DNA from: a virus
Lineage: Duplodnaviria > Heunggongvirae > Uroviricota > Caudoviricetes
DNA: 13,526 nucleotides
Reading direction: 5' to 3' (one strand)
Virus record (IMG/VR): IMGVR_UViG_2713896773_000027
Each line of letters starts with the position of its first letter. Position 1 is the first letter of the stretch. The notes beneath the pieces were generated by a model. The model ran no database searches. It was not told the origin of the DNA and saw only the letters and a list, made by a program, of their open reading frames with translations. The position numbers and the translations under genes were made by a program. This document shows, one piece after another, positions 1 through 13,526 of the stretch.

Positions 1-19
1 CTATTTGATAAATATTAAA

Positions 20-1315
20 TTAATTTTTCATTGCTTCGTTATGGGGCATGGTTGGGGCAAACTCGCTTAACTGTGTATTTAACAAAGCTACCTGTGCATT
101 ATTGTTTTCAGACATCCATTTTCCGTATACCTGAAATACCATTTGCGCATCTGCATGGCCCATCTGGTTTGCTATAAATGCCGGGTTAGCACCAGCTGTC
201 AGCGACCAGCAGGCATAAGTATGTCTCGACTGATATGATTTTCGATGGCGGAGTCCGGCACGTTTTATCGCTGCGTCCCACATCTGCCTTATTGAGTCAA
301 CGGTAAAATGGTCACCATAATTTTTTACTCTCGCTGACACTTCAGGTTGAAAAACAAAGGTGCATTTTTGTTTTTCTGTTCTGCCATACTCTCTGAGGTG
401 AACATCAATGATATGCTCTTTGCTCAGTCTCGTTAATGTCATCTGACTCCGGAGAGCGTCGATTGCTGGCTTAATAAGATGAATGACCCGATTGGTTCCC
501 GCCTGTGTTTTTGGTACCGTGAAACGGTCTTTTGCTAAATTTCTCCTGATCATCATTGTTCCATTTTTCAGATCTATGTCCTCCCATCCAAGTGCACACA
601 GCTCACCAGGGCGAACTCCAGTATAAACAGAAACACACCATAAATTTTTTGCTTGCTGATTTCTGCACGCATCGATAAGACGGATAAATTCTTCCCGCGA
701 AAGAGGATCCGGAATGGTTCTTGATTCCTTTAATGGCGAGATCCCCTTAAACGGATTATCTGCCAGGTAACCGTTATCAACACCAAACTGGAACACGGCG
801 TTAAGATTTGTCATGTAATTATTTACAGTTACAGCCGATCTCCCTGGTTGTGTAACAATATAGTTACTTTTGGGGATCTGGTATCCAGTCAGTAACTCTT
901 TACGAACCTCCAGTAATTTTTCTTTATTAATCGATGAGGCAAGATTTTTTTCACCGATTATGCTCAGGATATTTTTGATGACGGCACGGTATGTGTTGAG
1001 TGATGTTTTGGCGACTTCAGTTTCTTTCAGTGCCAGAAATTTTTCAGCCAGTTCTTTTATGGTTAAATCTTGTCGGGCCTCACCAAATTTTTCCAGATTG
1101 CGTGAGGAGGGAAACTGTTTTGCATAGTCGAAAACACCAGTTTTTATTGCGTAACAAACAGAGGAGCGTAGTTCACCTGCAACGCGCCTGTTTTTTGCTG
1201 TGTCAGGAACCCCCAGATTTTCCCTGACTCTTACGTCTTTATAAACAAACCAGATACGTAATTTCCCTCCATGGTTTTCCACGCCTGTCGGATATTTCAT
1301 TTCAACTTCTCTCAT
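20..1315 (-). CDS. int: phage tyrosine integrase (site-specific recombinase)
   Basis: 431-aa ORF. Tyrosine-recombinase signature segments are visible: GVRPGELCALGWEDIDL (box I Arg), SRHTYACWSL (box II), QMGHADAQMVFQVYGKW (catalytic Tyr region). It sits at the edge of the element next to an excisionase-like gene on the same strand, as in lambdoid int-xis modules. An alternative start at Met6 (MKYPTG) is possible. Confidence 0.9.
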   Translation of the reverse strand: MREVEMKYPTGVENHGGKLRIWFVYKDVRVRENLGVPDTAKNRRVAGELRSSVCYAIKTGVFDYAKQFPSSRNLEKFGEARQDLTIKELAEKFLALKETEVAKTSLNTYRAVIKNILSIIGEKNLASSINKEKLLEVRKELLTGYQIPKSNYIVTQPGRSAVTVNNYMTNLNAVFQFGVDNGYLADNPFKGISPLKESRTIPDPLSREEFIRLIDACRNQQAKNLWCVSVYTGVRPGELCALGWEDIDLKNGTMMIRRNLAKDRFTVPKTQAGTNRVIHLIKPAIDALRSQMTLTRLSKEHIIDVHLREYGRTEKQKCTFVFQPEVSARVKNYGDHFTVDSIRQMWDAAIKRAGLRHRKSYQSRHTYACWSLTAGANPAFIANQMGHADAQMVFQVYGKWMSENNNAQVALLNTQLSEFAPTMPHNEAMKN

Positions 1316-1334
1316 TAGTTAGTGTGGCTTTTAG

Positions 1335-1586
1335 TCAAGTAAGATGACGTCTTGGTCTCGCTGATGCCTGGCGCTCAATCCAGCGATCAATTTCTTCCAG
1401 GTTGTAAAAGCATGGACTGTTATCCCATGGCATACCGTCATGAGCGACATGCTTATATTCCCTTCCTTCCATAAACGATTTTTCCCGGGCCTTTTTTAAC
1501 GTACCTTTTTTTATTCCTTTCAGCGCAATTAACTGCTCTTCGGATACCCATTTGCCGGGAGAGACAATCATGATTACTTCGCTCAT
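1335..1586 (-). CDS. xis: excisionase-like small DNA-binding protein (Xis/AlpA-like)
   Basis: 83-aa ORF immediately upstream of int on the same strand. It is small and basic with a helix-turn-helix-like segment (LIALKGIKKGTLKKAREK) followed by a Trp-containing wing (EEIDRWIERQ). Position and size fit a recombination directionality factor; no homology search was run. Confidence 0.6.
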   Translation of the reverse strand: MSEVIMIVSPGKWVSEEQLIALKGIKKGTLKKAREKSFMEGREYKHVAHDGMPWDNSPCFYNLEEIDRWIERQASARPRRHLT

Positions 1587-1658
1587 CGATTTCTTTATCT
1601 CTTACATCAGACGAGCGCCGGTTGCAGAATACCAGTCACAACCGGCGACAGTTGAACA

Positions 1659-3290
1659 TTAAGAATCAGCCTGACTCGGGATCAGTTTTTGCCAGATAAC
1701 TGAAACGTATTTTGCCTGGTAACGGGCGTCATCAAGTGCATTATGGCGCTCACCTTCGAATGGAATAGCCGTTCTGGCATCGAAGTCTATGGCTTTCCCC
1801 AGCTCAACGATTGTGCGTACATCGCGATCGTTGTAGTAACGCCACGGGCAGGGGATCCCCTGCCGTTCGTATGAACGGCGCAAAATCGTGTTGTCGAAGT
1901 TGGCTCCATTTCCCCAAACCTGAACAAAAAATTCACCGGAGTTTTCGTCGATAAATTCTCGCAATTGTAACAGTGCATCATCTAACGGGATTTCATCGGT
2001 CATAATGGCAGATTGCGCTTCGCGTGATTGCTTAAGCCACCATTTAATGGTGTCCCGATCAATGACTCCGCCAGCAGTTTCCAGATCGATAGTCTTACTA
2101 AATTCCGGTCCCATATCTCCGGTTTGCGGATCGAAAAATATTGCACCTATTGAGATGATCGGGGCATCAGGATTTTTTCCCATGGTTTCAAGGTCGATCA
2201 TTAGATGGTCACACGTCCTGCTGGTGGATGTGATTTCGTGATGACCGTTCACCTTAATTGGGTGATCTGCCGTCTCGCCAGTTTCATTATCGCTATTGTG
2301 ATGCTGATTGCCGCCAGTGTTCTCCTTGTGTGGATGTTCAGCGCCTTCCATTTCCTCCGGATCATCTTCCTGAACTTCAACCTGATACTCTTCATCGAAT
2401 GTTTCTTGGTATGTTGCGTCGCCCATCACCGCGCCACAATCAGGGCAGTTGCCGCCGCCGGTCTGACCGCAGGCGGTGCAGACTTTTTCCACTTCCTGTT
2501 GCGCTACTGGTTCAGGCTGTTTCGTTTCTGGCTCGTTTTGTAACGCATTTGGACTGTTTTGTTCCGCTTTTTGGTAGTTCCGTTCCGATTCATGCTGGTT
2601 CTGGTTCACAGAATCGCGGGTCTGGAGCCCCTTAACCCATTTCGGATCATTCGGGTCACTAATCCCTTCAACAAATTCACCACGTGATGCAGCAAGCAAC
2701 TTATCGGCGTCAGGCTGGCTGATATTGGCTGCCTGCATAATTTTGTTTACTTCGTCAGCGGTAACTTTTATCGGCTCTGGTTGTTCTGAATCTTCAGCGG
2801 TATCTACATTTTGCGGTAAGCCCGTGTATGTGCCATTTTTTCGGGCAAAATATTCTTCTTTTGTGATTTCAGTGGCGCCAGCAGCCAGTGCCTTATCCAG
2901 ACCAGAGAGTTTGTTTGCGCGACCGTATTTTTCTCCGTCCTTATCTGCGAAGAGGAAATAGAACGGCCCCTCACGCTCTACAGATGGTTCAGCTTCCGGC
3001 GCGGTTTCATTTTTTGGGATATCAGATACCTCAGTTTCCACTGCATCAGTTTGTGTTTCTGATGACTGGAGAACATCAACAGTGCCCAGGTCTGTTTCTT
3101 CATTCTCAAACACGCCCTTTGTCGTCAGGTATTCGCAGATATATTTGTTCAGTGCTACGGGATCTTTGTGAATGTCGATCGGACGCTCACGGACAAGGCC
3201 AAAAATAGTTTGGCGGTCGTAGCGAAGGGCATCAGGCTGTTTGCGCATTGATGCCGAGATACGCTGAGGTAGCCTGAGTTTAACGGACAC
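1659..3290 (-). CDS. prophage exonuclease with C-terminal DnaQ-like (DEDDh) 3'-5' exonuclease domain and central Cys4 zinc-ribbon; probably 5'-truncated
   Basis: 543-aa ORF. The C-terminal third carries the three exonuclease motifs: Exo I MIDLETMG, Exo II VWGNGANFDNTIL, Exo III HNALDDARYQ. A Cys cluster CTACGQTGGGNCPDCG lies mid-protein. It occupies the position of recombination exonucleases in lambdoid early-left operons. The apparent GTG start at 3288-3290 lies inside the inferred IS3-family inverted repeat (3265-3290), and the first ATG (3246-3248) has no Shine-Dalgarno, so the native 5' end is probably lost. Confidence 0.7.
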   Translation of the reverse strand: MSVKLRLPQRISASMRKQPDALRYDRQTIFGLVRERPIDIHKDPVALNKYICEYLTTKGVFENEETDLGTVDVLQSSETQTDAVETEVSDIPKNETAPEAEPSVEREGPFYFLFADKDGEKYGRANKLSGLDKALAAGATEITKEEYFARKNGTYTGLPQNVDTAEDSEQPEPIKVTADEVNKIMQAANISQPDADKLLAASRGEFVEGISDPNDPKWVKGLQTRDSVNQNQHESERNYQKAEQNSPNALQNEPETKQPEPVAQQEVEKVCTACGQTGGGNCPDCGAVMGDATYQETFDEEYQVEVQEDDPEEMEGAEHPHKENTGGNQHHNSDNETGETADHPIKVNGHHEITSTSRTCDHLMIDLETMGKNPDAPIISIGAIFFDPQTGDMGPEFSKTIDLETAGGVIDRDTIKWWLKQSREAQSAIMTDEIPLDDALLQLREFIDENSGEFFVQVWGNGANFDNTILRRSYERQGIPCPWRYYNDRDVRTIVELGKAIDFDARTAIPFEGERHNALDDARYQAKYVSVIWQKLIPSQADS

Positions 3291-3591
3291 TCCTTCCTGA
3301 AATAGAATGGCATCAGAAGGAGCTAATAATGAGCAGAAAAACCCAACGTTACTCTAAAGAGTTCAAAGCCGAAGCTGTCAGAACGGTTCTTGAAAATCAA
3401 CTTTCGATCAGTGAAGGCGCTTCCCGATTATCTCTTCCTGAAGGCACTTTAGGACAATGGGTTACCGCCGCCAGAAAAGGGCTCGGTACTCCTGGTTCCC
3501 GCACGGTGGCTGAACTGGAATCTGAAATTCTGCAACTGCGTAAGGCGTTAAATGAAGCTCGCCTTGAGCGAGATATATTAAAAAAAGCAAC
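3265..3591 (+). mobile_element. IS3-family insertion sequence remnant (IS600-like), left end plus truncated orfA; interrupted by IS30
   Basis: The terminal sequence TGAGGTAGCCTGAGTTTAACGGACAC (3265-3290) starts with TG and ends with GGACAC like IS3-family left inverted repeats. It is followed after about 40 bp by an orfA-type ORF. The element stops abruptly at 3591, where the IS30 inverted repeat begins. No orfB or right inverted repeat is present in the window. Confidence 0.6.
3329..3591 (+). pseudogene. IS3-family transposase OrfA (IS600-like), truncated after codon 88 by IS30
   Basis: Translation MSRKTQRYSKEFKAEAVRTVLENQLSISEGASRLSLPEGTLGQWV...LERDILKKAT has the helix-turn-helix plus leucine-zipper layout of IS3-family OrfA. 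A Shine-Dalgarno AGGAG sits at 3318-3322. The last nucleotide of the final in-frame codon (ACT, Thr) is the first base of the IS30 terminal repeat. The 134-aa ORF on the track is an artefact running into IS30 and the N-run. Confidence 0.75.
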
Positions 3592-4595
3592 TGTAGATTC
3601 AATTGGTCAACGCAACAGTTATGTGAAAACATGGGGTTGCGGAGGTTTTTTGNNNNNNNNNNNNNNNNNNNNNNNNNNNNNNNNNNNNNNNNNNNNNNNN
3701 NNNNNNNNNNNNNNNNNNNNNNNNNNNNNNTAAGCGGGCTGTAGCTCACCTGACACTGTCTGAGCGCGAGGAGATACGAGCTGGTTTGTCAGCCAAAATG
3801 AGCATTCGTGCGATAGCTACTGCGCTGAATCGCAGTCCTTCGACGATCTCACGTGAAGTTCAGCGTAATCGGGGCAGACGCTATTACAAAGCTGTTGATG
3901 CTAATAACCGAGCCAACAGAATGGCGAAAAGGCCAAAACCGTGCTTACTGGATCAAAATTTACCATTGCGAAAGCTTGTTCTGGAAAAGCTGGAGATGAA
4001 ATGGTCTCCAGAGCAAATATCAGGATGGTTAAGGCGAACAAAACCACGTCAAAAAACGCTGCGAATATCACCTGAGACAATTTATAAAACGCTGTACTTT
4101 CGTAGCCGTGAAGCGCTACACCACCTGAATATACAGCATCTGCGACGGTCGCATAGCCTTCGCCATGGCAGGCGTCATACCCGCAAAGGCGAAAGAGGTA
4201 CGATTAACATAGTGAACGGAACACCAATTCACGAACGTTCCCGAAATATCGATAACAGACGCTCTCTGGGGCATTGGGAGGGCGATTTAGTCTCAGGTAC
4301 AAAAAACTCTCATATAGCCACACTTGTAGACCGAAAATCACGTTATACGATCATCCTTAGACTCAGGGGCAAAGATTCTGTCTCAGTAAATCAGGCTCTT
4401 ACCGACAAATTCCTGAGTTTACCGTCAGAACTCAGAAAATCACTGACATGGGACAGAGGAATGGAACTGGCCAGACATCTAGNNNNNNNNNNNNNNNNNN
4501 NNNNNNNNNNNNNNNNNNNNNNNNNNNNNNNNNNNAGTTCAAAACACCGAAAGAGATAATTGAAAGGGGTGTTGCATTGACAGATTGAATCTACA
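3592..4595 (+). mobile_element. IS30 insertion sequence; interior contains two N-runs (3653-3730, 4483-4535) that are assembly gaps of non-native length
   Basis: The ends are imperfect inverted repeats: left TGTAGATTCAATTGGTCAACGCAACAG (3592 onward), and the reverse complement of the right end (to 4595) is TGTAGATTCAATCTGTCAATGCAACAC. The internal ORF translates to the IS30 transposase sequence as I recall it. The flanks (..GCAAC | GTGTTG..) show no 2-bp target duplication. Confidence 0.85.
3732..4588 (+). CDS. insI: IS30 transposase (DDE family), visible portion; true start codon lies inside the first N-run and a mid-gene stretch inside the second
   Basis: The frame opening at 3732 reads KRAVAHLTLSEREEIRAGLSAKMSIRAIATALNRSPSTISREVQRNRG... 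and after the second gap ...KFKTPKEIIERGVALTD, ending at a TGA (4586-4588) inside the right inverted repeat. This matches the IS30 transposase. The interruptions are Ns, not mutations, so this is not necessarily a pseudogene. Confidence 0.85.
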
Positions 4596-4622
4596 GTGTT
4601 GTATTGTATAAATAGAGTACAT

Positions 4623-4664
4623 AAAGCCATCAATATTTCTATCGATGGCTTTATCTTTTTATTG
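4623..4664. terminator. hairpin (13-bp stem with one mismatch, 4-nt loop) followed by a T-run; likely terminator downstream of the tail-fibre assembly gene, possibly bidirectional
   Basis: AAAGCCATCAATA-TTTC-TATCGATGGCTTT (4623-4652) followed by ATCTTTTTATT on the + strand. On the - strand the same stem lies just after the tfa stop codon (4659-4661). It is 28 bp from the IS30 right end. Confidence 0.5.
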
Positions 4665-5237
4665 CGGGGCGACTGGCCACTCAACATCCGCTGCTACTGC
4701 TGTATCAACACGATTCAACAATACCCGATATGTCTTCCATGCAGTCAGTAACGATGCCTCTTCCTCCGTCGCAATATCCAAATCTACGGCATCCTGAAGT
4801 GGCGCAATATGCTCACTGGCCATCTGCATCAGGCTGTTTTTTGTTTCTTCCGCCTTCCGGATCCGGAACAGTTTTTCTGCTTCTGCATCTTTCACCCAGG
4901 CTGTGCCGTTCCACTTCTGAAACTCCCCTTCCGGGGATAACCAGGTGACATTTTCCGGTAATGGGCCAAGTTCAGAAATAAATAACGCGTCGCCGGAAGC
5001 CACGTCATAGACGGTTTTTCCCCGATGGTCTTCAACGAGATTCCACGATGCCTCATCACTGTTGAAAACGGCCACGAAGCCAGCCGGAATATCTGGCGGG
5101 GCAATATCGGTACTGTTTGCAGGCAGACCTGTATGAGGTGGAATGTATGCATCACCTTCACCAATAAACTCATTGGTTCCAGCCAGTAGATTATAAATTT
5201 TTATGGTCCGTGATTGTTCACTCATTCTGAATGTCAT
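4659..5237 (-). CDS. tfa: phage tail fibre assembly protein (Tfa / Mu U / P2 G family chaperone)
   Basis: 192-aa ORF. Its ATG overlaps the upstream tail-fibre stop by one base (TAATG), a classic Stf-Tfa coupling. The N-terminal region ([38 protein letters not shown]...) and size are typical of the Tfa family. Confidence 0.9.
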
Positions 5238-6853
5238 TATGCAAGCCTCACAATATAGTTAAATGCGATGTTTTTTACGGTGTTTTCTTCGTTACCCGTA
5301 GCGTTAACGGTGATGGTGTGTCCGTGGGGACCAATAATGACAGAATGGGCATGAGCACCAATGCCGATAGTGTGGTTATGGGCACCGATATATACATTGT
5401 GAGCATGCCCTCCTGCGCTCGACGTGGTACCAGTACCTAACGCAGCGTTATAACCGGCTGATACACCATTCCCCGCGCCAGTGTGACCAACAGGTATATT
5501 GTGTGAATGAGCTCCTGCGCTATTTGTGGTTTTTGTGCCGTAATCAAATGAACTGGTCGTTTTAGTACCGTAATCAAACGACGATGTGGTTTTCGTCCCC
5601 AAATCCGTACTGGATGCACTGGCGCTGTGGGTGTGCGATTTAATGCCGTCCTGTTCCTGAGACAATACTGCACGACCACTGGCGGGCTTGCCCTTAATCG
5701 TCCAGCTACGCATATCAGGGATCACACCTGACGGATAAGCGGCTGCAAGTTTCGGGTATGCAGATTTGTCAAAAGTCTGCCCCTGCATCAGGGCATAACC
5801 AGACGGAACGGTATCTGATGGCCAAGGGATCGGTGCGCCAACCGGATAAAGTTCATGCGGCGAAATATACAGCGAATAAACAGAACCGTCCGTTAATCCT
5901 TCCGGCTTATTAGCAGAATATGCTGGTGAAGTATGAATCGTTACGCTGGCATTACTGGTATAATCCCATTGAATATTTACACCAGTCGCATAATTTCCAA
6001 TAGCAACGTAAATATCGTAAGTGTCACCAGAAGTATTGACCCACGCAAAATTTGTAAACCCTGCCGATGTGCGCTGCCATAAAGCTCCAGTAATCCCCTT
6101 CGGATTACCGTTACCTGCACGCAAAACAAGTTCAGATATACCTGCCTGTTGAGGTGACCCCACGTTAAATCCCGCGCCACCAATCAACGTAATTGAAACA
6201 ACAGAACTTGCCTGCGGCATGGTTACAGTTGCCAGCTTGAACCATCCTGCACCACCACTAAAAGACATTGTTGTGGAGTTGATTGTGCCTATAGACCGTG
6301 GGTTAAGTTCAATATCTTTAGAACCATCAAACGAGACGCCATTGATAGCACATGCTGTCTGCAACTTGGTCGCTGTAGCCGCATTACCAGAGGTGTCCTG
6401 ATTCCCTTTGGCATTGACGCCGGGAATTGAATCTTTTGACGTATAGACCTGCGCCCATTCAGACCAGTTGGCAGAATCAGTATCCCGCCGCGAACGGATA
6501 TGTACGGGCGCATGGGCACCGCTCGTGCCACTCCAGCCAATGAATAACTCACCTTCGCCAGCAGCGGTGGCACCTTTAAGGTGAAGCACATTGCCATAGG
6601 GGGAAGGGTAGCCATTGTTGTATGCCTCATACAGCTGAATCCCGGATGTTCCCTGTGCATTCGCCTCCAGGGCCGTTACGCGACCGCGAGATACCAGAGT
6701 ATTGATATTAATGTCAGCCGAACCATCGAACCTGACGCCATTAATGTTTCTGGCTGTTTTTAATTTCGTCGCGGTGTCGGCGTTCCCCGCCAGCGCCCCG
6801 GTGATCCCACCGTTGAAAGTCTGGCGTGCACTCCATGTGTTAGCCGTGCTCAA
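5237..6853 (-). CDS. phage tail fibre protein, C-terminal variable (receptor-binding) cassette without its own start; reading frame stays open upstream through the crossover site to about 6931
   Basis: Contains two copies of the phage tail-fibre repeat ([26 protein letters not shown] and [28 protein letters not shown]), tandem [10 protein letters not shown] repeats, and C-terminal HxH repeats (HSHN, HAHN, HNHT, HAHS, HGHT). The listed start is a TTG chosen by the ORF finder. Translating upstream in frame gives ...[15 protein letters not shown]... with no ATG and no Shine-Dalgarno, consistent with a silent Sv'-type segment of an invertible host-range region. Confidence 0.85.
5528..5599. repeat. 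approximately 30-bp imperfect tandem repeat (about 2.4 copies) inside the tail-fibre coding region
   Basis: GGTTTTTGTGCCGTAATCAAATGAACTGGTC / GTTTTAGTACCGTAATCAAACGACGATGTG / GTTTTCGTCCCC on the + strand, encoding the [10 protein letters not shown] repeats on the - strand. Confidence 0.5.
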
Positions 6854-6883
6854 CAGGGGGATCTTTTCACCGCTTGTGCCAAG

Positions 6884-6909
6884 TTCTCTTAAACCAAGGT
6901 TTAGGATTG
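6884..6909. other. hix/gix/cix/pix-like 26-bp crossover site for the adjacent serine invertase
   Basis: TTCTCTTAAACC-AA-GGTTTAGGATTG is an imperfect palindrome with a central AA. By my recollection of hixL (TTCTTGAAAACCAAGGTTTTTGATAA) it matches at 19 of 26 positions. It overlaps the last codons of the invertase gene and lies in-frame within the upstream extension of the tail-fibre cassette. No second copy was found in the window. Confidence 0.6.
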
Positions 6910-7461
6910 AAATGATGACGCCGGAAACTTCTTATAAAGCGTGGAAACAGCCACATCATAGATGATTGCAACCTGCTTACGGGGGATGCCCTTCTCGAGC
7001 AATCGCCGCATTTGCTGCCATGTTTCTTCTTGGTATTTAGGCCGACGCCCACCTATACGACCTTCTGCGCGAGCTGCATCAAGTCCAGCGCGTGTACGTT
7101 CAACGATAAGCTCACGTTCCATTTCTGCCAGCGCCCCCATTACGTGAAAGAAAAAGCGCCCCATTGGTGTACTGGTGTCGATGGAGTCAGTGAGACTCCG
7201 GAAGTTAATGCCTCTGTCACGCAGCTCTTCCACCAGCACAACTAAGTGACGCATGCTGCGCCCAAGACGATCTAACTTCCATACGACTAGGGTGTCACCT
7301 CTGGAAAGCATACGGAGAACCTTTTTTAACCCAGGGCGTTCAGCCTTTTTGCCGCTCGCCTTGTCCTCAAAAATTAGCTTACATCCTGCGCTTTCAAGGG
7401 CATTTCGTTGTAAAGCAGTGTTTTGTTCATTTGTTGATACGCGTACATAGCCAATTAGCAT
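6901..7461 (-). CDS. pin: serine-recombinase DNA invertase (Hin/Gin/Cin/Pin family)
   Basis: 186-aa ORF starting [27 protein letters not shown]... with the catalytic Ser in the YVRVST motif, a resolvase/invertase catalytic domain ([16 protein letters not shown]...) and a C-terminal helix-turn-helix ([22 protein letters not shown]). It is very close to the E. coli Pin sequence as I recall it. The symbol denotes family membership, not a confirmed ortholog. Confidence 0.9.
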
Positions 7462-7588
7462 ATTTTCTGCTCACCATAGTTATTCATAGCAAGCTGCGGA
7501 TTTTAATTAACAGAAACCAGTGTGTGTGGAAATCACAAAGTGCATACCGTGCCCCAATGATGTTTTATTGAAAAGCGGGGTTACTTTA

Positions 7589-7870
7589 ATGTTTGATTTA
7601 ACCATATTTTTTATAACCATCCTTGGAGGCGTGCATTCGTTTCTGAATGGGGTTCGTGAAAAACGTTACGAAGCGTCATGCAGGCAATTGATGGCCGAGT
7701 GTATTGCTGCCGTACTTGCAGGCTTTATAGGCATGTATTTCGCGGAATATAAGGGTATGGATGAAAGTCTTCAGAATTGCGTGACTATTATTTGCAGCAT
7801 CAATAACAGGCTCATTCTTGAAAAGTTACAAAGGATTATCGATTCGTACCTCAGTAGCAATGCCTCTTAA
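7589..7870 (+). CDS. small membrane protein with two predicted transmembrane segments; holin-like (hypothesis)
   Basis: About 93 aa from the ATG at 7589; the track's GTG at 7520 has no Shine-Dalgarno. Hydrophobic stretches LTIFFITILGGVHSFL and CIAAVLAGFIGMYFA. Paralogous to the next ORF (GG..TFL..VR-D/E..; AGxxAxxLG motif). Function is inferred from size and topology only. Confidence 0.55.
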   Translation: MFDLTIFFITILGGVHSFLNGVREKRYEASCRQLMAECIAAVLAGFIGMYFAEYKGMDESLQNCVTIICSINNRLILEKLQRIIDSYLSSNAS

Positions 7871-7937
7871 GCAACAAATGACCGGTTGAGAAGTTACTTT
7901 GCATACCATTACCTCCTGACAACGTAGGAGGGAACTT

Positions 7938-8267
7938 GTGCTTGACACACAGGAATTAGCTCCAGTTGCTATTGCGCTCCTGCTTTCAGTAATTGGTGGG
8001 ATAGGCACGTTCCTGATGGATGTCCGAGACGGTCGCCAGTCTGGCAATTTGTTGGGATTGGTTACGGAGATCTTTGTTGCAGTGACAGCTGGCGCGGTGG
8101 CGTACCTATTGGGGCAACACGAGGGCTGGGAGTTATCAATTACGTACTTAATGGTAACGATAGCCAGCAATAACGGTCATGAGGTGATTTCAGGGATGAA
8201 ACGAGTGAATATCGATAGCATTCTGAATGTTCTTACAAGTTTGGTGAAAAAGGGAGGCGGGAAATGA
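7938..8267 (+). CDS. small membrane protein with two to three predicted transmembrane segments; holin-like paralog (hypothesis)
   Basis: 109 aa. GTG start preceded by a strong Shine-Dalgarno AGGAGG (7925-7930). Hydrophobic stretches VAIALLLSVIGGIGTFLM and IFVAVTAGAVAYLLG. Its stop overlaps the next gene's ATG (ATGA). Confidence 0.7.
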   Translation: MLDTQELAPVAIALLLSVIGGIGTFLMDVRDGRQSGNLLGLVTEIFVAVTAGAVAYLLGQHEGWELSITYLMVTIASNNGHEVISGMKRVNIDSILNVLTSLVKKGGGK

Positions 8268-8707
8268 TTGGCTGGGGTGTATGCGTTCTTGCGTTAGCCT
8301 TAGCCGATCGCTATTTGCTAAAACGCAAGGACATCACGCATTTAGAACTTGGTGATGTGGAAATTAAACCGGGTTTCATCCGGGTGCCGTTCAAATACCG
8401 GTCTAAATTCCCGTTTTTGCGCGGCGCAACAGTCAGATATTGGATCCGCGATGTTCAGAAGCCGACGACAGTGATTGAAGGCGAACAACGTTGTTTGACG
8501 TCGGCTGAACAGGGCGAAAACAGTGAATGGTTGTACATACCCACTGAATATATGGGTAAAGGAGAGCGACTGTGGCATTTCAACGTCATGGTTACGCATG
8601 GCGACTCGTTCATTAACCCGTTGTATCGGATTTTCCCTGTTACTCAGCAAATCCGCAGAAGTTACGTAATAAATCTCGCACAGGATGTGTCAGATGACGA
8701 AAAATAA
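8264..8707 (+). CDS. hypothetical protein with N-terminal signal-anchor-like hydrophobic segment
   Basis: 147 aa. ATG preceded by GGGAGG, overlapping the upstream stop. N-terminus MIGWGVCVLALALADRY is hydrophobic. No recognisable catalytic motif by eye. Confidence 0.65.
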   Translation: MIGWGVCVLALALADRYLLKRKDITHLELGDVEIKPGFIRVPFKYRSKFPFLRGATVRYWIRDVQKPTTVIEGEQRCLTSAEQGENSEWLYIPTEYMGKGERLWHFNVMVTHGDSFINPLYRIFPVTQQIRRSYVINLAQDVSDDEK

Positions 8708-9296
8708 GTATGCAACGGTCGATTTTGACCAGGTTAATGAAAAGGGGCTGAAATCCCTTATCGCGGCGATCAATAAAACCGGGGTTACGGTAATTGAGGT
8801 TGACTCCAGCAACCGCGCAACAACGAAAGATGGCGTTAAAGTTAAAACCGCAAAGCTGGTTCTTAACGACGGACAAATCCTTGCCATACAGGTAAACGAT
8901 ACTGGCGATATATCGTCTGTGAAACTGAATGGAAAAGCTATTCCTAACGCTCAGTCGCCGGATATCAAGACGCTTGGTACCGTCATGGGACAGGCGGCCC
9001 GCAAAAACTCCGCAAAATTCCAGAAATCACTGATCGCCAAAGCGAAGCGTGTAGCCAATCCGGTAGACAAGAAACCGGCAGTTAAATCCAACTTTCAGCG
9101 CCTGCAAGAAGCAAAACAGCGGAATGCTCAGGTGGTTGCCGCTTATAAGTCCGCGCAGAATTCGGTGTCTTTCAATCAACAGCAGATCACTGATTTGCGG
9201 GCGAAGCTGGATAAGGAGACGGGCCGACTCAATAACGAAAAGGCACGGAATGGCGAACTCAAACGTCGTCTTAAGCAACTGAAAGCAGGAAATTAA
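8694..9296 (+). CDS. hypothetical protein; N-terminal domain shared with the next ORF plus C-terminal basic coiled-coil
   Basis: About 200 aa from the ATG at 8694 (Shine-Dalgarno AGGA at 8682-8685); the track start at 8685 is less likely. The start overlaps the upstream gene's end. Shares LNDGQILAIQ ... KNSAKFQK with the next ORF. C-terminus is rich in K/R/Q/E heptad-like sequence. Confidence 0.7.
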   Translation: MTKNKYATVDFDQVNEKGLKSLIAAINKTGVTVIEVDSSNRATTKDGVKVKTAKLVLNDGQILAIQVNDTGDISSVKLNGKAIPNAQSPDIKTLGTVMGQAARKNSAKFQKSLIAKAKRVANPVDKKPAVKSNFQRLQEAKQRNAQVVAAYKSAQNSVSFNQQQITDLRAKLDKETGRLNNEKARNGELKRRLKQLKAGN

Positions 9297-9297
9297 C

Positions 9298-10329
9298 ATG
9301 GAACAGTTCAATATCAATAAAGGGGTGACGATCAAGCCTGGGCTTGACGTGCTTCCCCCGCCAGTGACTGATGATGAATATCGCGCATTAATGGCCGGTG
9401 AGGACCGCTATCTGATGACGGAATCCAACACCCTGGAGGAAATCGAGGCTACGTTCTTCTATGACACGCCGATCCACTGGTGTGCTACGGATTTACTGGA
9501 GGCGATTAGTTCTACTCGTTTGCAGTTACACCGGACCATGCAGGCATTTGTCCGGGCATTGAACCAGAAGCTGAATGGCACCGGAATCTCTGCGGGGAGT
9601 GATAAAACGGGGGATGTGGCCCAGAGCGGCGCGCGCGCGATCGGCGGTGCTGAAATTGGCCGGGCACGGAACGTTAACGGGCTGCCGGTCCTGCCAGCCA
9701 TTATTCCGCTCAGTGATGGTCAGACTATCAGCATTCTGTTTCATAGCCCGACAGCGGAAAACCGGATCACCAATAGCGATACGCTGGTTGCTTTCCAGTT
9801 CTTACTGAATAAAAAAGACGTTACTCACACCGTTGCTCCGATGAGTGGACGTGATATGACGCTGGCGCAGGTCACCATGAAACTTGCCAACCTTGCAGAG
9901 AAAAACTCGGCAAAATTCCAGCGTGCGCAGAAGAAGAAAAAAGCCCTGGTTGATGAAATAACCCAACTACAGGCTGACAGTGACCAGAAAGAGGATGCCA
10001 TGAGCGACCTCGCGGATCAGGTGGCAGCGGTAGAAGGGCAGAAGGTAGATCTGGAGCAGAAAATTAACGCTGTTGCATCGGAAGCGGATTCTCTTTATGA
10101 AGAGAATGAGCGTTTGCAGACGGAGATTGATCAGCTCAATCGCACTGGTGGGCGCGAAACCATTGCTCCTGCGGGGATGACTGGTGGACACTCTCGCGCG
10201 ATGACGGATCGCCTTGCAAGTATCAAAAATCGTATGCATATGAACGGGGAAGTGACGCTCAGTAATGGTGCATCAATGAAGCAATTCATTGAGGACGGTG
10301 AAGGGTATATCCAGTTAACTGGGATGTGA
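9298..10329 (+). CDS. hypothetical protein, paralogous domain (DGQ...KNSAKFQ) plus long acidic coiled-coil
   Basis: 343 aa. ATG one base after the upstream stop, Shine-Dalgarno AGGA at 9285-9288. Motifs LSDGQTISIL and EKNSAKFQRAQKKKK. Coiled-coil segment LVDEITQLQADSDQKEDAMSDLADQVAAVEGQKVDLEQKINAVASEADSLYEENERLQTEIDQL. Confidence 0.8.
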   Translation: MEQFNINKGVTIKPGLDVLPPPVTDDEYRALMAGEDRYLMTESNTLEEIEATFFYDTPIHWCATDLLEAISSTRLQLHRTMQAFVRALNQKLNGTGISAGSDKTGDVAQSGARAIGGAEIGRARNVNGLPVLPAIIPLSDGQTISILFHSPTAENRITNSDTLVAFQFLLNKKDVTHTVAPMSGRDMTLAQVTMKLANLAEKNSAKFQRAQKKKKALVDEITQLQADSDQKEDAMSDLADQVAAVEGQKVDLEQKINAVASEADSLYEENERLQTEIDQLNRTGGRETIAPAGMTGGHSRAMTDRLASIKNRMHMNGEVTLSNGASMKQFIEDGEGYIQLTGM

Positions 10330-11714
10330 AGACGCTGGATAAACAGGTTGATGTAACTCCCGATGAAGATGCTGTTATGCAGAAAATCAGTGGTGGCGTC
10401 TCCATCGCCGGGATTAACGACATCATTTCCTGTGACGATTTCTACCGTTTCCAGCAGCGCGGCATGATCAAAATCACTGACTCATACGGCGTTCAGACTA
10501 CAGAGTCAGGCTATAGCATTGATTTTGTTGGTACCTATACGGACCCACTGAAGCATGCGGTTTACCCGGATCGCCGTGACGGCGCGCTGAAGTCGTCAAT
10601 TGCAAAATGGGTGCTTGGTATGATGTCGGAAGGGAATAACCGCCAGATCCGTTCGGCAGAAACATTCCTGGTTGAACTGTTTGGCTCCAATTATGGCGAT
10701 GTAATCGCGTCATACGGAGATACGCTATCCCCTGAAGCAATTCAGGAGAAAATAGCGGATGCGATCGCCAGAATGCCGGAAAAAACAAGCCAGGGGGCTA
10801 CTCGTAACGGGGATTCTGAACTTGAAGTCACCAATGCCATTTTCGGTACCAATGAGTTCCGGGCGTCAGATTATGAGATCACCACAGCACAGTTTGGCAC
10901 CATTGGCATTTACAGCAATAAAGCCGAGATCAAGCAGGCAATGGACGCAGCAAGCGCGCGCATCGCAGCAGAACGGGAAGCCAATCTGAATCATGCAGTC
11001 GCCGCACTGACTCAATCGTGGGTAACAGCAATCAGGGAGGCCGCCACCACAGGGAAAATCACACCTGCAATTGCGGATGTCGTAAACGACGGCTCTAAAT
11101 TTATGGATGCCTATCAAATGGATGCGGTGCAGTTGCCATCAGCCTATGGCCAACTCAGCTATCGCATGACCTACAACCTGGTATCAATGTTTACTGACCT
11201 TGCCATCCTTGGGCTGGTGGACCTTAACGAGGTTACGCCGGAATTACTCAGCATGCGCAAGAATCATGTTGAGATATTGCAGAGAATTAACACGGTTCTT
11301 GCCGGGCGCACCGATGAAGAGAAACAGGCCGACGCTGATCGGATAAACCTGGCCCTAGGCAACATCACGGAGGAAGAAATTGCCGCCAGAAACGAGAAAC
11401 AAGAAGAGTTATCATCAATACAGGGTGATGCCACCAGCATAGCTCAGTCTCTTGGGCTGAATTATCGCGTATCCACCGCCGACCTGAAGATGATGTACGC
11501 ACCAAAATTCGCCGCTGGCGAGGTATTTGGGCTTCAGGAAGCCTCCGGCATGAAAGGGGTTCTTTTCCGTGCGAAAGACGCAATCAAGGCGAAATTCGGC
11601 GCTCGCTGGTTGCCAGCGAAGGCGAAGAACAGCGACTTCCCAGGTAACTGGTGGATTATCGAGACAAAACACAACGTGGCGGACGTTCTGGCCGTCATCC
11701 AACAATACGCATAA
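10326..11714 (+). CDS. hypothetical protein (462 aa), translationally coupled to the upstream gene
   Basis: GTG start overlapping the upstream TGA (GTGA). Long uninterrupted ORF. No Walker, nuclease or other catalytic motif recognised by eye. Confidence 0.8.
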   Translation: MKTLDKQVDVTPDEDAVMQKISGGVSIAGINDIISCDDFYRFQQRGMIKITDSYGVQTTESGYSIDFVGTYTDPLKHAVYPDRRDGALKSSIAKWVLGMMSEGNNRQIRSAETFLVELFGSNYGDVIASYGDTLSPEAIQEKIADAIARMPEKTSQGATRNGDSELEVTNAIFGTNEFRASDYEITTAQFGTIGIYSNKAEIKQAMDAASARIAAEREANLNHAVAALTQSWVTAIREAATTGKITPAIADVVNDGSKFMDAYQMDAVQLPSAYGQLSYRMTYNLVSMFTDLAILGLVDLNEVTPELLSMRKNHVEILQRINTVLAGRTDEEKQADADRINLALGNITEEEIAARNEKQEELSSIQGDATSIAQSLGLNYRVSTADLKMMYAPKFAAGEVFGLQEASGMKGVLFRAKDAIKAKFGARWLPAKAKNSDFPGNWWIIETKHNVADVLAVIQQYA

Positions 11715-11720
11715 CAGGAG

Positions 11721-11738
11721 CGCCCGGTTCGCCGGGCG
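11721..11738 (+). promoter_or_regulatory. intercistronic GC-rich stem-loop with TTCG tetraloop between a Shine-Dalgarno sequence and the next start codon
   Basis: CGCCCGG-TTCG-CCGGGCG. AGGAG (11716-11720) lies immediately 5' of the stem and the ATG at 11748 lies 9 nt 3' of it. There is no U-tract, so it is unlikely to be a simple terminator. Confidence 0.5.
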
Positions 11739-11747
11739 TCGCATAAT

Positions 11748-12188
11748 ATGGCCACATTATCTGATACAATAAAACCGAATAAAACATATCTTGAGGCGGT
11801 GCTGCGTACGGCGTTGTTAGGAAAGACAGAAGACGAATACGTTGATTTCTTCCTGTCAGGGCTACGCGGGCGATTACTGAAAAATCCCCGCCTGTACCGC
11901 AGCTATGGTCCATACTGGCCGGAAATTAAAAAATTATTACTGGAGCGCGGTTATGGTAATTTCGGTCGTCTCGTTGACCGTGACGTTCGCAAAATTTACC
12001 GTTATGACCGTCCGGCGCTGACGCTCATAGCCGCGACGCTCTACAGCCAGGAGCGTTTTGATAATGGTCAGATATACTCAGCCTGGCATTTACTGCCAGT
12101 GCCTGAAGAGGTTGACGACCAGGACTATGAGTTTGAGTCTTACGATTTGGAAGTTGAAGCCTTGGCACAGGCTGGAGAGAAAACTTGA
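11748..12188 (+). CDS. hypothetical protein (146 aa)
   Basis: ATG start 9 nt after the stem-loop. Acidic C-terminus (EEVDDQDYEFESYDLEVEALAQAGEKT). No recognisable domain by eye. Confidence 0.7.
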   Translation: MATLSDTIKPNKTYLEAVLRTALLGKTEDEYVDFFLSGLRGRLLKNPRLYRSYGPYWPEIKKLLLERGYGNFGRLVDRDVRKIYRYDRPALTLIAATLYSQERFDNGQIYSAWHLLPVPEEVDDQDYEFESYDLEVEALAQAGEKT

Positions 12189-12433
12189 AGAAGCGATACT
12201 ACACAGTAAAGCATGGGACGCTACGAGCATTGCAAGAGTTTGCTGATAAGCATAACGTTGAGGTGCGCAGGGAAGGGGGAAGTAAAGCTCTGCGCATGTA
12301 CCGTCCTGACGGAAAATGGCGGACGGTCGTCGATTTCAAAACTAACAGTGTTCCCCAGGGCGTCCGCGACCGGGCATTCGAAGAATGGGAGCAGATCATC
12401 ATAGATAACGCATTGCTTCTGAACGCTGATTAA
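12185..12433 (+). CDS. small basic hypothetical protein (82 aa), translationally coupled
   Basis: TTG start overlapping the upstream TGA (TTGA), with Shine-Dalgarno GGAGAG at 12171-12176. Last gene of the co-directional string before a hairpin. Confidence 0.6.
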   Translation: MKKRYYTVKHGTLRALQEFADKHNVEVRREGGSKALRMYRPDGKWRTVVDFKTNSVPQGVRDRAFEEWEQIIIDNALLLNAD

Positions 12434-12443
12434 TAATCATTTA

Positions 12444-12464
12444 AAGCCCATATGATATGGGCTT
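12444..12464 (+). terminator. hairpin (10-bp stem AAGCCCATAT / ATATGGGCTT) separating the coupled operon from the AT-rich downstream gene; weak U-tract
   Basis: A perfect inverted repeat is seen directly. It is followed by AAACAACAGG on the + strand, so intrinsic terminator function is uncertain. It coincides with a sharp shift in base composition. Confidence 0.4.
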
Positions 12465-12515
12465 AAACAACAGGATCGATATACAGTGTTAGTTAAATAT
12501 ATAGGCGAGAGTTAT

Positions 12516-13526
12516 ATGGAAAAACCTTGGCCGGGCATGCACATTAGAACATCTTGTCTGGAGGATGGTTTCTTTAGAGCAACGCAACCAAAGTATCTTA
12601 ATGATCCGTCGAGTGAGTCGCGACTTCTTCCATTTTTTAATAAATTTTCACCAGCCGATTACGCATGGGCTAGAAATGAATTTAAGAAAATGCAACGAGA
12701 TCCATCTTATGTCCCATCTATACAAGAGTTAGAGTATTATTTAAAACCTTGCGGGAAACGATACGGAGAGGATTTTCCACACTTGTTAATCAATGAAGGT
12801 TTTACCTCAATGGATTCATATGATGAATCTAAACTCCAAGAAATAGTAACGTACCTTAACGATTATTTAGTAGAAGCCGTAAGCTGTCATCTTGGTGTAT
12901 TCTCTCTATCAAAAAGTGATTGCAATCTACACATGTGGACTCATTATGCATCGATAGGAAAGGGGTTTGCTGTAGTTTTCGATGAAACACACGATTTTTT
13001 CAAAATATATAGGCCGTGTGATGTTAGTTATAATCCAGAAGATAGAGCATCTGTAACCTATTATAAAGGCGCTGTGCGATTTAATGGCTATCCTGCGCCA
13101 TCGAGGAATATAGATATAAAGAATAAAGATAATACATTGCATGGGATCTTAAATCGAGATTCAGTTCGCGAGCTTTTTATTAATAGGCTCCTTTATACAA
13201 AAGGTGAAGAGTGGCTTCCTGAAAATGAAAGTAGAATTATTTTTCCTTTAGCTGATTGCGAGAGAAAGATAGGAAGTATTGTCTCTCCATCGATTGATGA
13301 TTGCCTATTAAATGAGTATCCTGATGTTTTTCATGACTATCATGAAATTAACTTAAAGAAAATTCCTTTTTCTGCATTCAAGCAAATTACCTTAGGGTAT
13401 AACATGACTGAAAAAGATAAAAATATAATTTTAGATAAAGTTAGTTCGAATAAAGAATTGTCTCACGTCAACGTATTACATTCAAAACTTGATATATACG
13501 GAAAGGTTGTGGTTAAGCCCATGTAA
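12516..13526 (+). CDS. AT-rich orphan protein of unknown function (about 336 aa); candidate horizontally acquired accessory or defence gene
   Basis: ATG at 12516 with GAGAG 5 nt upstream; the track's GTG at 12486 is less likely. The ORF ends exactly at the window end (TAA). Visibly lower GC than all neighbours. Contains CHLGVFSLSKSDCNLHMWTHYASIGKGFAVVFDE. No known catalytic motif recognised by eye. Confidence 0.8.
   Translation: MEKPWPGMHIRTSCLEDGFFRATQPKYLNDPSSESRLLPFFNKFSPADYAWARNEFKKMQRDPSYVPSIQELEYYLKPCGKRYGEDFPHLLINEGFTSMDSYDESKLQEIVTYLNDYLVEAVSCHLGVFSLSKSDCNLHMWTHYASIGKGFAVVFDETHDFFKIYRPCDVSYNPEDRASVTYYKGAVRFNGYPAPSRNIDIKNKDNTLHGILNRDSVRELFINRLLYTKGEEWLPENESRIIFPLADCERKIGSIVSPSIDDCLLNEYPDVFHDYHEINLKKIPFSAFKQITLGYNMTEKDKNIILDKVSSNKELSHVNVLHSKLDIYGKVVVKPM

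Follow-up and report, generated by a model that had tools for sequence, protein, structure and literature searches.

A Qin-type prophage end and a P1-plasmid remnant placed together through a collapsed IS30 in a draft scaffold of Escherichia coli AW1.3

Introduction

Does the stretch of DNA analyzed here (the window, 13,526 nucleotides) represent one mosaic phage element, or does it bring together two elements that have little to do with each other? The question is raised by its gene order: genes for an integrase (int), an excisionase (xis), and a truncated exonuclease (exo′), all on the minus strand, are followed by a fragment of IS600, an IS30, the tail fibre genes U′ and Sv′, the crossover site cixL, the invertase gene cin, and a plus-strand operon that starts at 7589. 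According to the original prediction, this is a single composite prophage, sculpted by insertion sequences, in which a lambdoid arm has been fused to an invertase and host-range module of the P1/Mu/e14 type. We consider it more probable, at about 60%, that two unrelated, decayed, and well-known elements of E. coli are combined in one scaffold here, the arms having been linked by the ABySS assembler through a shared IS30.

Materials and methods

Over its whole length, and also in its N runs, the window matches LDYI01000177.1 (100% identity), a short-read draft scaffold of E. coli AW1.3 produced with ABySS. For AW1.3, version 1.3.4 of ABySS was run on 100-bp paired reads from a library with 300-bp inserts (PMC4563881). 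The collections compared comprised 5,426 complete E. coli genomes, 50,697 phage records, and 72,556 plasmid records.

Results

The left arm (positions 1 to 3265) matches, with 100% identity, the int-xis-exo end that Qin-type lambdoid phages and prophages have next to rspB, including that of phage PhiR42_1 and those in many chromosomes, among them the chromosome of strain ML35. The gene content proposed for this arm is present. The gene for the tyrosine integrase of the Qin-type lambdoid prophage (20..1315, minus strand) encodes the Pfam domains Arm-DNA-bind_2 and Phage_integrase, matches the PHROG integrase family, and is 100% identical to its counterparts in ML35 and PhiR42_1. Its 3′ end points toward rspB, which lies just beyond the window edge, 187 bp past int, both in ML35 and in the source scaffold (L010). 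Next to it is the gene for a DUF1233 family excisionase (1335..1586, minus strand; Pfam ID PF06806, E value of 1.6e-31; PHROG excisionase). A tyrosine integrase and an excisionase thus stand next to the known attachment region beside rspB, as at the end of a lambdoid prophage; there is no tRNA gene in the window that could have been the integration target. The truncated exonuclease gene (1659..3265, minus strand) matches positions 289 to 822 of the 823 positions of PHROG 2082 and contains the Pfam Rv2179c-like exonuclease domain. Intact relatives have an 823-aa exonuclease, of which about 535 C-terminal codons are left here, the N-terminal part having been replaced by IS600. Homology to PhiR42_1, where the intact exonuclease gene occupies positions 2704 to 5175, ends at 3265, and the corresponding gene of ML35 is labelled incomplete by PGAP. 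Early-left genes followed by immunity, replication, and late regions are not found in the window, as exo is cut at 3265 and IS600 and IS30 come next.

The left end of an IS600-like element of the IS3 family occupies positions 3265..3591 (plus strand) and includes the 5′ part of orfA (3329-3591; Pfam HTH_Tnp_1), interrupted by IS30. In ML35, the remainder of IS600 comes after IS30, which has AC on both sides as a 2-bp target duplication. In the window, the IS30 (3592..4595, plus strand), recognizable by its terminal inverted repeats, is drawn as positions 1-61, 78 N, positions 218-969, 53 N, and positions 1162-1221 of the 1221-bp element, and its flanks are mismatched, with AC on the left and GT on the right and no 2-bp target duplication. 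The two N runs (3653-3730 and 4483-4535) both lie inside IS30. The idea that they are database masks was rejected, as the IS30 stretches that they stand for measure 156 and 192 bp, against 78 and 53 N, and as they are also present in the NCBI copy of the record. The retained core (218-969) starts right after a single-nucleotide polymorphism at position 217 by which the Qin copy is distinguished from those of the plasmids, and it ends exactly where the IS30 copy of related plasmids that is truncated by ISKpn26 ends. Because the gap edges fall at sites where the IS30 copies differ, the IS30 of the window is a collapsed repeat. Unique contigs enter it by only about 60 bases at each end, which points to two or more different flanks for each end in AW1.3.

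On the right, IS30 adjoins P1-like C-segment DNA (4596..4658) that consists of the final 20 bp of a gene for a serine acetyltransferase and a hairpin downstream of U′ and is collinear with p15648-1 from L005 position 7001. Among contigs of other assemblies that run through IS30, only L013 is gap-free, and it has the plasmid flank: its order, acetyltransferase′-GT-IS30-GT-U′, is that of a simple insertion of the same IS30 into the plasmid. At the far side of the P1 block, the AW1.3 scaffold crosses an IS5 that likewise contains two N runs.

The right arm (4596-13526) is a native contiguous block of phage P1, 97 to 99% identical to P1 and P1-like plasmids. The separate origin claimed for the two arms is thereby confirmed, the left one being of Qin-type lambdoid descent, and the right-hand boundary proposed at 8267 has to be abandoned, as the P1 block continues to 13526. 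As for its assignment to a P1/Mu/e14 type, P1 is supported by Cin (one residue off), cixL (20/20), and lydA (330/330), but a generic Mu/e14 module is not. The U′ tail fibre assembly gene (4659..5237, minus strand; Pfam Caudo_TAP, PHROG 105) is of the P1 C-segment type and has the same position as U′ in P1 and p15648-1. An Rfam IS009 match inside U′ is the sole Rfam match in the window. Sv′ (5237..6896, minus strand), the alternative variable 3′ part of the tail fibre gene S, was delineated by frame analysis, a Pfam Collar domain, and the P1 annotation. It reads as an open frame from the cixL crossover onward and lacks its own start codon and promoter; according to PGAP, its counterpart is missing the N-terminus.

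The only Cin crossover site in the window is cixL (6884..6911), identical to P1 cixL; no second cix site is found in the window at up to 3 mismatches, and there is no second AAACCNNGGTTT core. The cin gene (6901..7461, minus strand) is intact and encodes a serine DNA invertase with the Pfam Resolvase and HTH_7 domains, 185 of whose 186 residues are identical to P1 Cin (the exception being E28K). The recombinational enhancer (7372-7443; 69/72 versus P1) lies within the 5′ coding part of cin, as in a complete inversion switch. However, there are no two inverted crossover sites, the invertible segment is cut at 4596, and neither R nor Sc, the constant 5′ part of S that, with its promoter outside the segment, would let either variable part be expressed, is present in the window. 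The host-range switch is dead, since just one cix site survives and the constant part of S is missing. Thus, the genes of the postulated invertase and host-range module are present and in the expected order, but the module does not work; on the sequence evidence, Cin is left with nothing to invert, and Sv′ and U′ are not expressible as a tail fibre.

The plus-strand operon begins with lydC (7589..7870), a holin homologue with the Pfam Phage_holin_3_3 domain (266/282 nt identical to P1 lydC), followed by LPdar (7891..7909, plus strand), which is identical in 19/19 positions to the annotated late promoter of the P1 darA operon. The next three genes, all on the plus strand, are intact: lydA (7938-8267; all 330 nt identical to P1; Pfam LydA holin), lydB (8264-8707; 439/444 nt identical; Pfam LydB), and hdf (8685-9296; 603/612 nt identical; Pfam DarA_N). 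The P1 darA anti-restriction operon is nevertheless not intact, as darA is cut and ddrA and ddrB are deleted. The remaining darA′ (9298..10329, plus strand; Pfam DarA_N; incomplete according to PGAP) comprises the first 343 of the 639 codons of P1 darA and ends out of frame just past a deletion junction (10316..10319), where P1 homology stops at 10319. This junction, with the 4-bp microhomology TAAC, connects P1 position 28802 to P1 position 11863, so that 16.9 kb of P1 (positions 11864-28801), including at least ddrA, ddrB, hxr, isaB, and IS1, has been removed, and darA′ has been fused to darB′. The latter (10326..11714, plus strand) has no start of its own and retains the C-terminal 462 of the 2255 codons of P1 darB, with 97.7% identity (PHROG 1685, positions 1805-2278 of 2278); the intact 2255-aa darB is present in L019-L026. 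The P1 genes ulx (11748-12188) and lxc (12185-12433) follow, both on the plus strand, and the block ends with an accessory gene for a DUF2971 protein (12486..13526, plus strand; Pfam DUF2971), which has a low G+C content of 0.32-0.38. The same gene comes after lxc in many intact P1-like plasmids and has the same position in L019-L026.

In the assembly collection, 755 blocks contain the darA′ deletion product, with repA-parAB and IS1 as neighbors. This P1-remnant plasmid family is widespread, and nested IS1 deletions have removed cin, Sv′, and U′ from most of its members. In the complete genome of NCTC9040, a P1 remnant 100% identical to the window over 8,884 bp lies inside the chromosome record, and related P1 remnants are also found in the very long scaffolds L029 and L032. 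These records indicate that members of the P1-remnant plasmid family do integrate into chromosomes.

The IS30-U′ junction does not occur in any of the 5,426 complete E. coli genomes, 37 of which have the same junction of exo′, the IS600 fragment, and IS30, and a scan of species-representative genomes for the exact 39-base junction pattern gave no match. More generally, no complete E. coli genome, phage, or plasmid record in the three collections covers more than 66% of the window, and an intact relative with the combined order, the finding that would have made the arrangement a native one, is absent from all of them. Among all the assemblies that hold the exact Cin variant of the window, this scaffold alone ties it to Qin.

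Discussion

The original prediction had the two arms joined via IS elements. Both arms are indeed cut by IS elements and IS30 stands between them, but their physical link, which spans the two N runs, is not demonstrated. Since pairs from a 300-bp insert are too short for the 1.2-kb IS30, the scaffold is silent on which flanks belong together. Probably, the join is a scaffolding artefact and not a product of real IS30 recombination, a reading drawn from the assembly method. The left arm is the rspB-proximal end of a Qin-type cryptic prophage whose exonuclease gene lost its 5′ part to IS600, which later received IS30, and the right arm is a 9-kb remnant of a P1-like phage-plasmid in the form carried by the widespread repA-parAB plasmids. 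AW1.3 would have at least two full copies of IS30, of which one would lie in the Qin remnant of the chromosome and another, a simple insertion with a GT duplication, in the plasmid C segment, and ABySS, working with 300-bp inserts, would have joined one flank of each copy via the common core. It counts against an artefact that hybrid flanks with no duplication are also expected from homologous recombination between two IS30 copies or from IS30-mediated replicon fusion, and that plasmids of this family do enter chromosomes, as NCTC9040 and the long scaffolds L029 and L032 indicate.

The principal alternative, which we regard as somewhat unlikely, is that the join is real and that a P1-remnant plasmid, or a piece of one, has integrated into the Qin remnant of the AW1.3 chromosome, either by homologous recombination between the IS30 in the Qin IS600 and the IS30 of the C segment or by replicon fusion mediated by IS30. 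Either route predicts the order seen here, with the Qin left arm followed by IS30 and U′, and a reciprocal junction elsewhere. The AC/GT flanks are compatible with a recombinant IS30, and both parental insertions are known separately, in ML35 and in L013. However, the read pairs cannot bridge the element, each of its ends has at least two flanks in AW1.3, and the junction is missing even from the complete genomes that share the Qin arm. NCTC9040 speaks for both sides: its chromosome record carries the same P1 remnant, but the left neighbor there is IS1 and plasmid DNA, and the 100 kb read around the remnant contained plasmid, P1-like, and IS DNA and no Qin flank that would support the AW1.3 join. 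In our estimate, a true recombination of the P1-remnant plasmid with the Qin remnant of AW1.3 by way of IS30 is unlikely. Were it so, the chromosome would harbor an intact orphan Cin with a single cixL, and the enzyme could act in trans on sites of other invertases or on cix-like sites, causing inversions.

A single domesticated composite prophage, reduced by IS elements to recombination genes plus accessory cargo and acting as an island for defence or cargo, is very improbable. Both arms are IS-truncated and each retains a recombinase, and PADLOC matches the DUF2971 gene to its candidate system PDC-S31 (E value of 3e-16). However, the right arm comes from a plasmid family and not from a prophage, and the loss of cin, Sv′, and U′ in most members of that family gives no sign of selection to retain them; darA and darB are pseudogenes, and Cin has no partner site for its cixL. 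The DUF2971 gene, found at the same place in intact P1-like plasmids, belongs to the native accessory content of P1 rather than to gathered cargo. The other PADLOC hits in the window amount to coiled-coil noise and a generic domain of DEDDh exonucleases, and a cluster of several recognizable defence genes is absent. This part of the original prediction is therefore not sustained.

The Qin end and the P1-plasmid remnant are both well known, and their join is of an ordinary kind and may not be physically real. Even a real join would add only another IS-mediated plasmid-chromosome cointegrate of two well-described decayed elements, with no new mechanism. The case calls for caution, as a striking phage mosaic in a draft genome can arise by scaffolding through a multicopy insertion sequence, and junctions inside N-gapped IS elements should be given no biological reading without long reads.

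Each part of the window has close counterparts among known systems. The cryptic prophage Qin (Kim) and its inducible relatives PhiR42_1, HannyBb, and Tritos have int-xis-exo regions 99 to 100% identical to that of the window. The Qin prophage of ML35 lies beside rspB, as does the window, with flxA, relBE, hokD, and ydfU/V/W farther along, whereas the window, in contrast to intact Qin relatives, has exo cut at 3265 by IS600 with its inserted IS30 and is devoid of ydfD to ydfB, cI, cro, cII, and O. The IS30 of the window resembles a simple IS30 insertion in its terminal inverted repeats and in belonging to a 1221-bp element, but differs from it in the absence of a 2-bp target duplication (AC versus GT) and in an interior that is not sequenced through in the record. 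With phage P1, the window shares the order and orientation of the C segment, cin, lydC, and the darA operon and, separately, of darB-ulx-lxc, at 97-99% nucleotide identity, with cixL, the enhancer, and LPdar conserved and Cin different in one residue; unlike in P1, IS30 interrupts the C segment between U′ and U, and cixR, Sv, U, Sc, and R are absent. The closest relatives of the right arm are the E. coli repA-parAB P1-remnant plasmids of 92-147 kb, such as H15 plasmid A (NZ_CP010179.1) and plasmid I (NZ_LT883139.1), which have the identical darA′-darB′ junction and the genes that follow it, at 99.9-100% identity, with IS1 and IS5 flanking. In these plasmids, IS1-adjacent deletions end at window positions 7803, 7972, or 7992, whereas the window, L013, and NCTC9040 retain more of P1, including cin, Sv′, and U′.

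Left Arm: a Qin-Type Prophage End

According to the ORF listing and family scans, the left arm encodes a tyrosine integrase (20 to 1315), an excisionase (1335 to 1586), and, at 1659 to 3290, an open frame of 543 codons bearing an Rv2179c-like exonuclease domain, all on the minus strand, followed on the plus strand by an IS3-family orfA fragment (3329 onward). Positions 1 to 4595 are 100% identical to many Escherichia coli chromosomes. In strain ML35, this left-arm block directly adjoins rspB-rspA-ynfA and is followed by ydfW, flxA, ydfV, relBE, hokD, rem, and ydfU, which we take, from K-12, to be Qin prophage genes. Phage PhiR42_1 (ECOR13) is 100% identical across 1 to 3265, with 99% identity for phages HannyBb and Tritos; its gene order is int, xis, the gene for an 823-aa exonuclease, ydfD, ydfC, ydfB, cI, cro (dicC-like), cII, O. 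The left arm is therefore a lambdoid early-left region, as originally predicted, and belongs to the Qin-type family.

Only the 3' part of the exonuclease gene is present (aligning to PHROG 2082 positions 289 to 822 of 823), and homology ends at 3265, giving way to the left end of an IS600-like element. That element is interrupted by IS30 at 3592. In ML35, IS30 carries a 2-bp target duplication (AC/AC) and is followed by the remainder of IS600; the exo'-IS600'-IS30 junction is common to 37 complete genomes.

Right Arm: a Contiguous Piece of P1

In the same listing and scans, the right arm starts on the minus strand with a tail-fiber assembly gene (U'; 4659 to 5237), a tail-fiber C-terminal frame (Sv'; 5237 to 6853), and a serine invertase (cin; 6901 to 7461), and runs to 13526 on the plus strand with two LydA-type holins, LydB, two DarA_N proteins, three frames without a Pfam match, and a DUF2971 protein. 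Positions 4596 to 10319 are 98 to 99% identical to intact P1-like phage-plasmids, e.g., p15648-1, and from 6302 on this block shows 97.4% identity to P1. When the P1 annotation was mapped onto the window, identities to P1 were 20/20 for cixL, 185 of 186 residues for Cin (the difference being E28K), 69/72 for the inversion enhancer, 266/282 for lydC, 19/19 for the late promoter LPdar, 330/330 for lydA, 439/444 for lydB, and 603/612 for hdf. The tail-fiber frame is open starting at the cixL crossover, as Sv' should be, with U' next. The order U'-Sv'-cixL-cin-lydC-lydA-lydB-hdf-darA is native to both P1 and p15648-1, so that the invertase, host-range genes, and downstream operon are a single contiguous piece of P1 and not a generic Mu/e14 module.

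The cin-lydC intergenic region and lydC (7462 to 7870) are less P1-like than the flanking cin and lydA (98 to 100% identical), and the P2cin promoter was not recovered in the cin-lydC region of the window; the pattern suggests that P1-like plasmids are mosaic over this short stretch. An Rfam match to IS009 (192.7 bits; 4696 to 4894, minus strand) lies entirely within the U' coding sequence and probably reflects an Rfam family defined on a remnant of the homologous tail-fiber assembly gene.

The window holds one cix site; neither a second site, at up to 3 mismatches, nor a second AAACCNNGGTTT core was found in it. The invertible C segment ends at 4596, within the final 20 bp of a gene for serine acetyltransferase, located between U and U' in p15648-1. 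Because the segment is cut there, the window lacks cixR, Sv, and U, as well as the constant part of S and the R gene along with its late promoter; Cin thus has nothing to invert there, and Sv' and U' have no route to fiber expression. The P1 late-promoter activator is likewise absent from the window; judging from P1 biology, the lyd and hdf genes would rely on the late promoter that needs it. Some P1-like plasmids carry the acetyltransferase gene within the invertible C segment (6448 to 7020 in L005, the p15648-1 record; window 4596 to 4615).

On the darA side, P1 homology ends at 10319, and positions 10320 to 12433 are 97.7% identical to P1 9750 to 11863 (the last 462 codons of darB, ulx, and lxc). 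Since the two P1 segments are collinear in orientation, the breakpoint is a deletion of P1 11864 to 28801 (16.9 kb), with a 4-bp microhomology, TAAC, at the junction (10316 to 10319). darA and darB are left as fragments in differing frames (fused region, 9298 to 11714). The deletion product, a 343-aa DarA fragment, is very common, being found in 755 blocks in the assembly collection, and its presence identifies a family of P1-remnant plasmids that is widespread. Many intact P1-like plasmids carry a DUF2971 gene after lxc (10001 to 11041 in L019 to L026). The window copy (12486 to 13526) has a low G+C content and matches PDC-S31, a candidate system in PADLOC; the gene may serve in defense, carried on phage-plasmids.

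The Join through IS30

The arms meet at a plus-strand IS30-type transposase frame, identified in the ORF listing and family scans and interrupted by two N runs. The whole window, with its N runs, matches LDYI01000177.1 (GCA_001309485.1) at 100% identity; this record comes from E. coli AW1.3, isolated from beef, whose 100-bp paired reads (300-bp insert) were assembled with ABySS 1.3.4 (PMC4563881). Measured against the 1,221-bp IS30 of ML35, the window copy comprises positions 1 to 61, 78 N, 218 to 969, 53 N, and 1162 to 1221; because the N runs stand for 156 and 192 real bases, respectively, they are estimated scaffold gaps, not masks. The core begins one base past a single-nucleotide polymorphism at position 217, where the Qin copy has A and plasmid copies have G, and stops at 969, the exact end of the ISKpn26-truncated IS30 in H15 plasmid A and NCTC9040. 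Unique contigs extend just ~60 bases into each IS30 end, a pattern characteristic of a de Bruijn graph with multiple flanks joined to each end. As a 300-bp insert is too short to link sequences 1.1 kb apart, the arms are connected solely through this shared repeat, of which there are at least three copies. Just beyond the DUF2971 gene, the source scaffold (L010) also passes through an IS5 that contains two N runs (233 to 308 and 601 to 685), so that the 9-kb P1 block is tied to both neighbors solely via gapped repeats. IS30 in the window is flanked by AC on the left, as in the Qin insertion, and by GT on the right, as in the plasmid insertion.

The gene content claimed in the original prediction is present, and the separate origins of the arms and a role for IS elements are supported; a search for an intact prophage with the combined gene order found none. 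The physical fusion of the arms is unproven. A chimeric scaffold would show the same four flank junctions as genuine recombination between the two IS30 copies, and the assembly is therefore unable to discriminate between these readings. We regard a chimeric scaffold artifact as the probable explanation (about 0.6). In favor of the artifact, no complete genome among 5,426, nor any of the 37 of them that share this Qin arm, crosses the IS30-U' junction; among all assemblies with this exact Cin variant, the Qin link occurs in this scaffold only; the sole gap-free crossing of IS30, in contig L013, has a plasmid flank; and the scaffold runs through further repeats too.

A real IS30-mediated cointegrate of the Qin and P1 arms seems rather unlikely. 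In its favor, the NCTC9040 chromosome record holds the same remnant (100% identity across 8,884 bp); its neighbors there are IS1 and plasmid DNA, not Qin. That the locus is a domesticated composite serving as a defense or cargo island, as originally predicted, is very improbable, given a plasmid-derived right arm, broken anti-restriction genes, and a dead switch; the sole PADLOC candidate is DUF2971/PDC-S31, which P1-like plasmids carry as native accessory content. All of the content belongs to known families.

The Usual Home of the P1 Remnant

The context of the remnant was read in long contigs and closed plasmids (H15 plasmid A, strain 1094 plasmid I, and others). There, repA-parA-parB lies a few kilobases from the darA' deletion product, downstream of which are IS elements, an encapsulin/DyP peroxidase pair, and formate dehydrogenase and tetrathionate reductase genes. 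To the left of the remnant is IS1, and P1 DNA starts at window position 4643, 7803, 7972, or 7992, depending on the plasmid (L006, L007, and L029 to L038), in what looks like a set of nested deletions next to IS1; the longest version is that of the window. In L013, the gap-free order is IS1, 198 bp of the acetyltransferase gene, GT, IS30, GT, U', in which the same IS30 appears as a simple insertion in that gene, 20 bp before its end and with a GT duplication.

In the NCTC9040 chromosome record (NZ_LR134247.1, 2.12 to 2.22 Mb; stretches L001, L004, and L027), ~100 kb of plasmid and P1-like DNA includes repA-parAB, MobH/MobI, a second replication gene, cre, c1, terminase genes, phd/doc, and a type I restriction-modification system, among which lie numerous IS copies and a few genes of chromosomal type (rclA and corA). 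Either a real integration or a fault in the assembly could account for this arrangement.

Between IS1 copies, P1-remnant plasmids carry a family 1 encapsulin with a DyP-type peroxidase, together with formate dehydrogenase (14437 to 17620 in L007; 24417 to 27607 in L001), to which some add tetrathionate reductase or galactonate genes. Such metabolic cargo is unusual for a replicon with P1/P7-type repA-parAB.
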